From Escherichia phage vB_EcoM_G50: a stretch of 64,000 nucleotides of DNA. The stretch lies in sequence record NC_054917.1. One strand, 5' to 3'. The notes beneath the pieces are model-generated. The model was not told the DNA's origin and searched no databases. It saw only the letters and a list, made by a program, of their open reading frames with translations. A program made the position numbers and the translations under genes. Below, one piece after another: positions 5,566 to 6,587 of this stretch; the first letter of the stretch is position 1, and every line of letters begins with the position of its first letter.

Positions 5566-5641
5566 GGTCGAGGCAGTAGGGATCGAACCTACGACCTAGG
5601 ACTTAGAAGGTCCTTGCTCTTCCTTCTGAGCTATGCCCCGT
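5566..5641 (-). tRNA. tRNA-Arg (UCU)
   Basis: Cloverleaf; acceptor CGGGGCA/TGCCTCG; anticodon loop CTTCTAA; T-loop GGTTCGATCC; CCA encoded. Confidence 0.85.
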
Positions 5642-5645
5642 AATT

Positions 5646-5721
5646 GGGGTGACCGATGGGAGTCGAACCCATGACTACGAGAATCACAATCTTGAGTTCT
5701 ACCAACTGAACTACGGCCACA
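5646..5721 (-). tRNA. tRNA-His (GUG), tentative
   Basis: Acceptor GTGGCCG/CGGTCAC, discriminator C, CCA encoded; anticodon loop TTGTGAT; one A-C mismatch in anticodon stem; no encoded G-1. Confidence 0.6.
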
Positions 5722-5835
5722 TTAATACCTACTCCAACAATCAAGATGTCTTCACACGAAATTAAGAGAAGAGTGATCAGTTCAACCCCGATAATCGCGT
5801 CAAGTAGATATTAATGTGACAACTGTCACAAATTT
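5722..5835 (-). ncRNA. candidate small RNA in tRNA-cluster gap
   Basis: 113-nt gap between tRNA-Asn and tRNA-His; contains palindrome GTGACAGTTGTCAC; no ORF; no folding done. Confidence 0.2.
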
Positions 5836-5910
5836 GGCGGACGTGATAGGATTCGAACCTATAACCAATCGCTTAACAGGCGATCGCTCTGCCATTGAGC
5901 TACACATCCA
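5836..5910 (-). tRNA. tRNA-Asn (GUU)
   Basis: Acceptor GGATGTG/CACGTCC; anticodon loop CTGTTAA; T-arm ATAGGTTCGAATCCTAT; CCA encoded. Confidence 0.8.
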
Positions 5911-5914
5911 AATT

Positions 5915-6001
5915 GGTGGGGAGTGATGGAGTCGAACCACCCGAGTCGCAATGACAATGGATTTACAGTCCACACCGCTACCTCTACGGGATAACTCCCC
6001 T
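5915..6001 (-). tRNA. tRNA-Tyr (GUA), long variable arm
   Basis: 87 nt; acceptor GGGGAGT/ACTCCCC; anticodon stem-loop GTGGA-CTGTAAA-TCCAT; CCA encoded. Confidence 0.8.
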
Positions 6002-6014
6002 TAATTCTTAATTT

Positions 6015-6089
6015 GGTGGCCCTGGGTGGAATTGAACCACCATCTGGCGATTATGAGTCGCTTGCTTGAACCTTCCAGCTACAGGGCCT
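6015..6089 (-). tRNA. tRNA with CAU anticodon (Ile2 or Met)
   Basis: Acceptor GGCCCTG/CAGGGCC; anticodon loop CTCATAA; T-arm GTGGTTCAATTCCAC; CCA encoded. Confidence 0.75.
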
Positions 6090-6090
6090 T

Positions 6091-6166
6091 GGTGCTGATT
6101 GACGGAATCGAACCGCCGACCTTCTCATTACAAGTGAGTTGCTCTACCTACTAAGCTAAATCAGCA
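6091..6166 (-). tRNA. tRNA-Thr (UGU)
   Basis: GCTGATTTAGCTTAGTAGGTAGAGCAACTCACTTGTAATGAG...; anticodon loop CTTGTAA; CCA encoded. Confidence 0.9.
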
Positions 6167-6171
6167 AAACT

Positions 6172-6261
6172 GGCGGAGGCGATAGGATTTGAACCTATGA
6201 GTCGCCGGAGCGACTGCCGGTTTTCAAGACCGGTGCATTAAACCACTCTGCCACGCCTCCA
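6172..6261 (-). tRNA. tRNA-Ser (UGA), long variable arm
   Basis: 90 nt; acceptor GGAGGCG/CGCCTCC; anticodon stem-loop CCGGT-CTTGAAA-ACCGG; CCA encoded. Confidence 0.85.
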
Positions 6262-6263
6262 GT

Positions 6264-6337
6264 CTCCATACAAGGATTTGAACCTTGGACCTCCTGATCC
6301 CAAATCAGGCGCTCTACCAAACTGAGCTACACGGAGT
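6264..6337 (-). tRNA. tRNA-Pro (UGG), no encoded CCA
   Basis: Acceptor CTCCGTG/TATGGAG; anticodon stem-loop CCTGA-TTTGGGA-TCAGG; 2 nt from tRNA-Ser. Confidence 0.8.
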
Positions 6338-6347
6338 AAATTAAATT

Positions 6348-6421
6348 GGAGCGGATAATGAGAATCGAACTCACATCATCAGATTGGAAGTCTGAGGTAA
6401 TGCCATTATACGATATCCGCA
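6348..6421 (-). tRNA. tRNA-Gly (UCC)
   Basis: Acceptor GCGGATA/TATCCGC; anticodon loop CTTCCAA; CCA encoded. Confidence 0.85.
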
Positions 6422-6426
6422 AATTT

Positions 6427-6513
6427 GGTGCGAGAAGTGGGACTCGAACCCACAAGGAAATCATTCCGCAGCATTTTAAGTGCTGTGCCTTTACCAATTT
6501 GACCATTCTCGCG
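6427..6513 (-). tRNA. tRNA-Leu (UAA), long variable arm
   Basis: 87 nt; acceptor GCGAGAA/TTCTCGC; anticodon stem-loop CAGCA-CTTAAAA-TGCTG; CCA encoded. Confidence 0.85.
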
Positions 6514-6514
6514 C

Positions 6515-6587
6515 TGGGAATAAAGGACTCGAACCTTTGCATCCTGGAATCAAAATCCAGTGCCTTACCAACTTGGCTAATTCCCAA
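6515..6587 (-). tRNA. tRNA-Gln (UUG), no encoded CCA
   Basis: Acceptor TGGGAAT/ATTCCCA; anticodon stem-loop CTGGA-TTTTGAT-TCCAG; 1 nt from tRNA-Leu. Confidence 0.8.

Follow-up and report, generated by a model that had tools for sequence, protein, structure and literature searches.

The tRNA operon of Escherichia phage vB_EcoM_G50 compared with T4, T2 and T6, and a predicted structured leader ahead of its tRNA-His

Why does the tRNA cluster of Escherichia phage vB_EcoM_G50 hold more genes than that of T4, and what occupies the long spacer ahead of its tRNA-His? The DNA analysed is a 64-kb window of the phage genome (sequence record NC_054917.1; 'the window' is this whole stretch), in which the cluster lies on the minus strand. 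A preliminary description, made from the letters of the window, had read the cluster as an expanded operon of 11 tRNAs, three more than T4. The locus is very probably the endonuclease-free form of the Tequatrovirus tRNA operon, carrying the fullest tRNA set seen in the genus, with the difference from T4 arising through allele replacement. The part of the cluster that this account explains least well is tRNA-His together with the segment that precedes it.

Gene content of the cluster and its relation to T4, T2 and T6

ARAGORN calls exactly 11 tRNA genes in the window, every one on the minus strand and all between 5565 and 6586; the location first proposed is correct, with its coordinates (5566–6587) one base off. 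The genes are as follows, in order of transcription.

6513–6586, minus strand: tRNA-Gln (UUG), no encoded CCA (ARAGORN, Rfam)
6426–6512, minus strand: tRNA-Leu (UAA), class II, CCA encoded; 100 % identical to T4, T2 and T6
6347–6420, minus strand: tRNA-Gly (UCC), CCA encoded; 99 % identical to T4
6262–6336, minus strand: tRNA-Pro (UGG), no encoded CCA; 100 % identical to T4 and T2
6171–6260, minus strand: tRNA-Ser (UGA), class II, CCA encoded (ARAGORN)
6090–6165, minus strand: tRNA-Thr (UGU), CCA encoded (ARAGORN)
6014–6088, minus strand: CAU-anticodon tRNA, T2-type allele (ARAGORN); 100 % identical to T2, 63 % to T4
5914–6000, minus strand: tRNA-Tyr (GUA), class II, CCA encoded; 99 % identical to T2 and 98 % to T6, no counterpart in T4
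5835–5909, minus strand: tRNA-Asn (GUU), CCA encoded; 74 bits (Rfam), 100 % identical to T2, no counterpart in T4
5645–5720, minus strand: tRNA-His (GUG), C73 and CCA encoded; 58.7 bits (Rfam)
5565–5640, minus strand: tRNA-Arg (UCU), CCA encoded, T2-type allele; 97 % identical to T2, 63 % to T4

Order and identities agree with the preliminary description, including Tyr, Asn and His, which it had counted as additions to the T4 set. All 11 genes also exceed the gathering score of the Rfam tRNA model RF00005 (30.2–74.1 bits against a threshold of 29). Ten of them score 59–74 bits; tRNA-Tyr is the lowest at 30.2 bits, barely above the cut-off because of its long variable arm. By reading of the sequence, 1 nt separates the Gln discriminator base from Leu and 2 nt separate that of Pro from Ser, the 1–2 nt spacings that had been given for these pairs, and a third tight pair is formed by Thr and the CAU tRNA, with 1 nt between the Thr CCA and the following gene. 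The absence of an encoded CCA from tRNA-Gln and tRNA-Pro is likewise borne out, the other nine genes all encoding it. The spacer between Asn and His, given as 113 nt, measures 114 nt (5721–5834).

T4 (NC_000866) has eight tRNA genes and lacks Tyr, Asn and His, as the preliminary description had it. The four arrangements compared are set out below, in order of transcription.

T4: Gln-Leu-Gly-Pro-Ser-Thr-Ile(CAU)-segB-Arg-rnaD-rnaC; 8 tRNAs
T2: Gln-Leu-Gly-Pro-Ser-[ORF replacing Thr]-CAU-Tyr-Asn-Arg-ORF-rnaD-rnaC (ORF, open reading frame); 9 tRNAs
T6: Gln-Leu-Gly-[Pro/Thr chimera]-CAU-Tyr-segB-Arg-rnaD-rnaC; 6 tRNAs called by ARAGORN
The window: Gln-Leu-Gly-Pro-Ser-Thr-CAU-Tyr-Asn-leader-His-Arg-ORF-rnaD-rnaC; 11 tRNAs

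The window has all tRNA gene types of T4, T2 and T6, plus His, and its cluster is free of endonuclease genes. It shares with the T4 locus (70.9–72.5 kb) the genomic position, flanking genes, promoter motif, rnaD, rnaC and terminator, and the six genes from Gln to Thr run in the same order at 89–100 % identity. However, T4 has segB (666 bp) exactly where the window has Tyr-Asn-leader-His, its Ile(CAU) and Arg are different alleles, 63 % identical to those of the window, its Ser and Ile lack an encoded CCA, and no ORF lies between Arg and rnaD. Within 5565–6100 of the window no segB-type GIY-YIG ORF was found, the segment being filled by Tyr, Asn, leader and His.

T2 (T2/T2L; EMBL AJ880101 and AP018813) also lacks segB, and its CAU tRNA (100 %), Tyr (99 %), Asn (100 %) and Arg (97 %) match those of the window. 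Its Ser encodes CCA, and the same ORF stands between Arg and rnaD, with rnaC and the terminator coming after. Unlike the window, T2 has no leader or His, which leaves 4 nt between Asn and Arg; its Gln allele is of T4 type; and the ORF T2L trna.1 takes the place of tRNA-Thr, of which only about the first 13 nt are left. T6 (NC_054907) has a tRNA-Tyr 98 % identical to that of the window, but segB follows directly, the CAU and Arg alleles are of T4 type, and Ser, Asn and His are missing.

The segB gene is absent from T2L, RB1 and RB3, and the enzyme cuts preferentially within 27 bp located at the 3′ end of tRNA-Asn (PMC2330249). In crosses of T4 with T2L, segB homing swaps out about 1250 bp of T2L DNA, comprising Met(CAU), Tyr, Asn, Arg and two ORFs, and puts the T4-type segment in place of the T2-type one (PMC2330249). 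More generally, the tRNA cluster is a known hotspot for homing endonucleases and similar elements (PMC13096335). The SegB target was rebuilt from the published description as a 27-mer with the conserved GGTTCRANTCC, in which G6, A16, G18, A26 and A27 set the Asn site apart from the Ser site (PMC2330249). The tRNA-Asn of the window is identical to that of T2 at 75 of 75 positions, the target within it is the same in both, and the reconstructed 27-mer is present:

5833–5859, minus strand: intact preferred SegB target GGTTCGAATCCTATCACGTCCGCCAAA, the 3′ part of tRNA-Asn plus 2 nt

By this predicted target site, the allele of the window would be SegB-sensitive (T2L-type). The location of segB at the Tyr-Asn-leader-His position, taken with the published crosses, ties the smaller tRNA set of T4 to endonuclease-driven replacement. 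Together with the T2-type CAU and Arg alleles, it also suggests that the difference from T4 reflects allele replacement in the T4 lineage and not a special expansion.

The arrangement is also widespread. Escherichia phage REP4, the closest record, matches the first 25 kb of the window at 98.6 % identity and the 1.6-kb tRNA locus at 99.6 %. Matches of 97–99.6 % identity that span at least 80 % of this locus occur in at least 259 GenBank phage records; the annotated records among them list the same 11 tRNAs (REP4 explicitly), and Tequatrovirus isolates with 11 tRNAs have already been reported in eleven papers. The arrangement is thus a known one, annotated as a matter of routine: a common endonuclease-free haplotype of Tequatrovirus. 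Of the 'expanded' operon first described, the count of three above T4 stands; the notion of a special expansion gives way to this haplotype, the segB site and the T2-type CAU and Arg alleles.

Several points weigh against allele replacement in T4 as a full account. The sequences alone give no direction between loss in T4 and gain in the window, and T2, with its 4 nt between Asn and Arg, is without His and the leader. Codon supply, moreover, leaves tRNA-His unexplained (histidine is used 0.58× as often as in the host), and this tRNA lacks G-1, the major identity element for E. coli HisRS (PMC9976931). These points converge on the His module, which is taken up below.

Irregularities of other kinds occur at the same locus in relatives. 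The T2 ORF trna.1 (3711–4236, minus strand, of the T2 stretch compared) is mis-annotated in its record as a tail sheath monomer; its replacement of Thr looks like another mobile-element insertion. The T6 gene annotated as tRNA-Thr (about 1843–1925, minus strand, of the T6 stretch compared) consists of the 5′ end of tRNA-Pro joined to the body of tRNA-Thr, and ARAGORN makes no call there. Phage AndreasVesalius (1302–1910 of the stretch compared) has a putative homing endonuclease in place of tRNA-Pro, and both Sa45lw (1470–1985 of the stretch compared) and T2 have an extra 516-nt ORF upstream of tRNA-Gln.

tRNA-His and its structured leader

The tRNA-His gene has a 7-bp acceptor stem, C73 and CCA, with T at position −1; the absence of an encoded G-1, noticed earlier, is therefore real. 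It is also general: G-1 is absent from 20 of the 20 T4-like (Straboviridae) copies examined, that of the window included, with T at −1 and C73 kept. G-1 is the major identity element for bacterial HisRS, that of E. coli included (PMC9976931). Of the bacterial-type tRNA-His identity set, C73 and the GUG anticodon are present and a G-1 paired with C73 is not. No literature discussing phage tRNA-His genes that lack G-1 was found. The family extends over Tequatrovirus, Karamvirus, Klebsiella T4-like phages, Kanagawavirus, Gualtarvirus and one Aeromonas phage. Throughout, the cloverleaf is kept, stem changes are fully compensated (for example in the anticodon and T stems of PhiKR1) and the anticodon loop is invariant. 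The A–C mismatch reported in the anticodon stem exists (A28 opposite C42) and is a private single-nucleotide polymorphism, a single G28A transition at window position 5693, where REP4 has G; the corresponding 57-mer of the window is missing from all 346 matching records, and 338 of these depart from it by exactly one base. The doubt expressed about the identity of this tRNA is thus largely resolved by the conserved, compensated family and by the private nature of the mismatch, although the missing G-1 remains.

Two more distant genes may be set beside these. The tRNA-His of mycobacteriophage Erdmann (121–195 of the stretch compared) is 80 % identical to that of the window and has T at −1, without this leader; that on a contig of Acinetobacter phage MD-2021a (124–200 of the stretch compared) encodes G-1.

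The spacer between Asn and His contains the following element.

5721–5834, minus strand: structured 114-nt leader of tRNA-His; the 5′ arm 5802–5815 pairs with 5721–5734

The arms form a helix of 14 contiguous bp, the 3′ strand of which is His −14 to −1. As a unit 80–91 % identical, the tRNA-His gene and about 100 nt upstream of it recur in Karamvirus and Klebsiella phages, where they come after tRNA-Gln. Sixteen copies, 13 of them distinct, were aligned with MAFFT: the spacer is conserved at its two ends, which are complementary to each other, and its interior of 53–66 nt is unrelated between lineages. Pairing was tested over 15 pairs, the 14 contiguous ones and one beyond a mismatch: 97.4 % of the helix cells are paired, against 35–51 % with slid partners. 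Compensatory double changes occur at three pairs, and another five vary by way of G-U; the observed covariation score was reached by 0 of 500 shuffles. RNAalifold, unaided, predicts the same helix, lengthened to take in His +2 to +5, together with a small hairpin in the interior that likewise shows covariation; in the window the possible extension would pair 5816–5820 with His +1 to +5, and so cross the RNase P cleavage site. Joint folding of leader and tRNA has the helix stop exactly at −1, directly against the acceptor stem. Separate folds place a hairpin at the same position in PEi20, whose spacer is only 36 nt in total and whose stem has 12 bp, in a phage of Providencia (19 bp) and in one of Aeromonas with different sequence.

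On this evidence the 'gap' of the preliminary description is a structured leader, kept across several T4-like lineages from different hosts. It has no Rfam family match, and no earlier description of it was found, whereas the 11-tRNA cluster itself was already known. Since the G-U wobbles can pair on the transcribed strand alone, the structure appears to act at the RNA level.

Five other interpretations of the segment were considered. That it is a decayed tRNA was rejected, as 5721–5834 gives no tRNA-clan match even at E ≤ 1. That it is a promoter for His and Arg was rejected too: a sigma-70 scan is empty there, and the sole −10-like hexamers would start transcription inside the tRNA. An inverted repeat acting at the DNA level (a miniature inverted-repeat transposable element or an endonuclease site) is unlikely given the strand-specific G-U wobbles and the three compensatory swaps. 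Nor is it the landing site of an insertion of ~500 bp, since the Sa45lw insertion is the ORF upstream of Gln and the AndreasVesalius endonuclease replaces Pro. A mechanism specific to His and G-1 is weakened by three observations: the mycobacteriophage tRNA-His that has neither G-1 nor leader, and two made in Enterobacter phage Entb_43. In that phage a 151-nt gap between Trp and Gly (1177–1327, minus strand, of the stretch compared) is a homologue of T4 rnaC, unannotated in the record, and in single-sequence folds tRNA-Asp and tRNA-Lys, too, have helices abutting their 5′ ends.

The same two features of Entb_43 support reading the leader as a processing by-product. T4 rnaC and rnaD are likewise structured non-tRNA segments, of about 120–140 nt, within a tRNA precursor, and are released during tRNA processing; they differ from the leader in having no sequence similarity to it, and the defining feature of the leader is a terminal helix ending at the 5′ terminus of tRNA-His. 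Another structured, possibly stable precursor by-product like rnaC and rnaD is the more economical reading. The leader could also delay or redirect 5′ maturation, because its helix sequesters nucleotides that RNase P normally meets single-stranded, and it could be a substrate for a double-strand-specific nuclease. A tentative and rather improbable extension of these ideas is that an undescribed RNA element controls how or when tRNA-His acquires its 5′ end, or is a third stable small RNA, with a role for the tRNA beyond codon supply. RNase P could then be blocked until, for example, RNase III acts, or cleavage could be shifted so that the −1 nucleotide is kept.

The distribution of the module also bears on how it came to lie between Asn and Arg. 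In the Karamvirus and Klebsiella T4-like clusters (Entb_43, Roth68, Phi_KR1) the leader and tRNA-His are alike, down to the helix ending at −1 and the T at that position. The neighbours of the module differ there, however, being tRNA-Gln upstream and Ser downstream, and the clusters have 12–17 tRNAs of other order and content (Asp, Lys, Glu, Trp, Phe and others). This recurrence behind a different gene, together with the bare Asn–Arg junction of T2, is what would be seen if leader and His were a horizontally exchanged cassette inserted between Asn and Arg, a true addition to a T2-like ancestor. Both junctions, moreover, are CCA-A(A/T)T(T/A) motifs, which may have supported recombination. Deletion of the module in T2 through these same junction repeats is equally conceivable, though, and about 200 Tequatrovirus-type records carry it at ≥95 % identity, so that it is not a recent single event. 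Insertion as a cassette is accordingly a serious alternative for the His module, yet the less probable one.

Codon usage and the roles of the tRNAs

The comparison of codon usage proposed with the preliminary description took 19,072 codons from 65 non-overlapping ORFs of the window and set them against an approximate E. coli K-12 table. Codons ending in A are enriched in the phage: AGA 5.1×, AUA 3.2×, ACA 2.9×, GGA 2.9×, UCA 2.8×, UUA 2.1×, CCA 1.9× and CAA 1.6×. Each of the eight T4-type tRNAs decodes one of these over-represented codons. Tyr (1.48×) and Asn (1.49×) are the second and third most enriched amino acids in phage proteins, whereas His is the most depleted. Codon usage accounts for ten of the tRNAs, then, and not for His.

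Under the reading preferred here, an endonuclease-free Tequatrovirus operon, eight tRNAs would read codons ending in A, which are over-used by the AT-rich phage and rare in E. coli, and Tyr and Asn would serve amino acids about 1.5× more frequent in phage proteins. To judge by the 98 %-identical T6 gene, Tyr may also replace host tRNA-Tyr destroyed by Septu or retron-type nucleases.

It is possible, if doubtful, that the extra tRNAs, His above all, are kept mainly as counter-defence spares and not for codon supply, standing in for host tRNAs cut by nucleases that act on the anticodon or the variable loop, such as Septu, retron-Eco7 PtuAB or colicin-E5-like enzymes. In experiments the tRNA-Tyr of T6 lets that phage overcome Septu, which cleaves tRNA-Tyr, whereas T4, without the gene, cannot escape (PMC13096335). 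The tRNA-Tyr of T5 counters retron-Eco7 (PMC11555353). Colicin E5 targets four tRNAs with GUN anticodons, three of them being Tyr, Asn and His, and this idea has already been published as a hypothesis (PMC10264068). The demand for His codons, the lowest of all amino acids in the phage, and a tRNA-Gln that is dimorphic only in its anticodon arm, as expected under nuclease pressure, point the same way. Against this, amino-acid demand also accounts for Tyr and Asn, no defence nuclease directed at tRNA-His or tRNA-Asn was found in the literature on these systems, and a tRNA-His without G-1 may substitute poorly in translation. Septu also cuts the T6 phage tRNA-Tyr itself, so that protection in that case works through dosage.

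That tRNA-His is decaying or non-functional is very unlikely: the T at −1 in all copies, the A28/C42 mismatch of this genome and the low demand for His would fit, but the cloverleaf is conserved in all T4-like lineages examined, with fully compensated changes in its T and anticodon stems, no variation occurs in the anticodon loop, Rfam scores the gene at 58.7 bits, and the mismatch is private, being absent from the 346 matching records and from the closest relative.

The cluster as such adds nothing new, as it is routinely annotated and the variation among T-even phages (segB homing, Tyr against Septu) is published. What interest is left lies in the His module: a tRNA without G-1, for the least-used amino acid, always preceded by a covarying leader. 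Were the leader to govern 5′ maturation or to be a functional small RNA, it would add something new to the biology of phage tRNAs, and could help to show why phages retain tRNAs for which codon usage gives no reason.

The operon beyond the tRNAs and details of single genes

The operon appears to reach past tRNA-Arg, where an ORF, rnaD, rnaC and a terminator follow, and a promoter motif precedes tRNA-Gln.

6656–6680, minus strand: candidate MotA-dependent middle promoter, TGCTTTA (6674–6680), 12 nt, TATTAT (6656–6661)
5196–5546, minus strand: 116-codon ORF between tRNA-Arg and rnaD, the T2L 'trna.2' ORF, phrog_3355
5080–5199, minus strand: rnaD (species 2 stable RNA) homologue, from alignment to annotated T4 rnaD; ends by homology
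4935–5073, minus strand: rnaC (species 1 stable RNA) homologue, from alignment to annotated T4 rnaC; ends by homology
4855–4884 (also delimited as 4861–4884), minus strand: intrinsic terminator, a 10-bp GC-rich stem followed by a T run (terminator scan); kept in T4

The middle promoters of T4 combine a MotA box with a −10 element. The motif of the window, some 70 nt upstream of tRNA-Gln, recurs unchanged in T4 and T2, and its pattern (TGCTTTA-N12-TATTAT) occurs once in the window against 0.05 occurrences expected by chance. The T4 tRNA cluster is transcribed from a middle promoter just upstream (PMC2330249), and the motif at 6656–6680 presumably acts as the middle promoter of this operon. One transcript of about 1.8 kb probably starts there and ends at the terminator after rnaC; it would hold the 11 tRNAs, the 114-nt leader, the 116-codon ORF, rnaD and rnaC. 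Processing of phage tRNAs by host enzymes is established for T4. Host RNase P and 3′ exonucleases would be expected to cut out the tRNAs here, with the CCA-adding enzyme acting on Gln and Pro.

The 116-codon ORF is T2L 'trna.2', as primers #24 and #25 of PMC2330249 match its ends. It matches phrog_3355 at 1e-52, and sequence searches of Pfam, NCBIfam, PADLOC and PDB returned no match; T4 is without an ORF at this position. The whole operon is flanked by the trna.2-4/ipI/57B/57A/gene 1 block and the e.x genes and shares their strand, in accordance with the REP4 and T4 annotations. Synteny with T4 comprises trna.2-4, ipI, 57B, 57A, gene 1 and gene 3 upstream and e.8 downstream.

Several tRNA genes differ in detail between relatives. 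The tRNA-Gln is identical to that of T4 at 66 of 74 positions, and the eight differences all fall within the anticodon arm; relative to the allele shared by T4, T2 and T6, they comprise loop positions 32 and 38 and three swaps of base pairs, each fully compensated. The two alleles divide the database, with 289 records carrying that of the window and about 235 that of T4. The CCA of tRNA-Ser is encoded in the window and T2 and not in T4; a CCAG difference in this gene between T2L and T4 has been noted before (PMC2330249). In tRNA-Thr there is an A27/A43 mismatch, and a C13U transition at window position 6153, private in comparison with REP4, produces a U13-G22 wobble. The private transitions at 6153 (Thr) and 5693 (His), both relative to this closest relative, could be real mutations or sequencing errors.

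The CAU tRNA, first described as either Ile2 or Met, is most likely tRNA-Ile2, a reader of AUA after lysidine modification. Its best E. coli matches are genes annotated as tRNA-Ile (81.6 %), its body resembles host ileX/ileY and not the Met tRNAs, and the records of relatives label it Ile/ATA; the 3.2× enrichment of AUA in the phage points the same way. The sequence also contains C4-G69 and C5-G68, which are taken here to be TilS determinants.

Between the operon terminator and e.8 lie two further ORFs (3645–4208 and 4333–4806, minus strand), where T4 has none. Both belong to phrog_2280 and share only the N-terminus MK(S/T)YA(Q/E)FL(N/T)EA, which is similar to the start of T4 internal protein I; with what is presumably a capsid-targeting sequence at that end, they may be capsid-targeted internal proteins.

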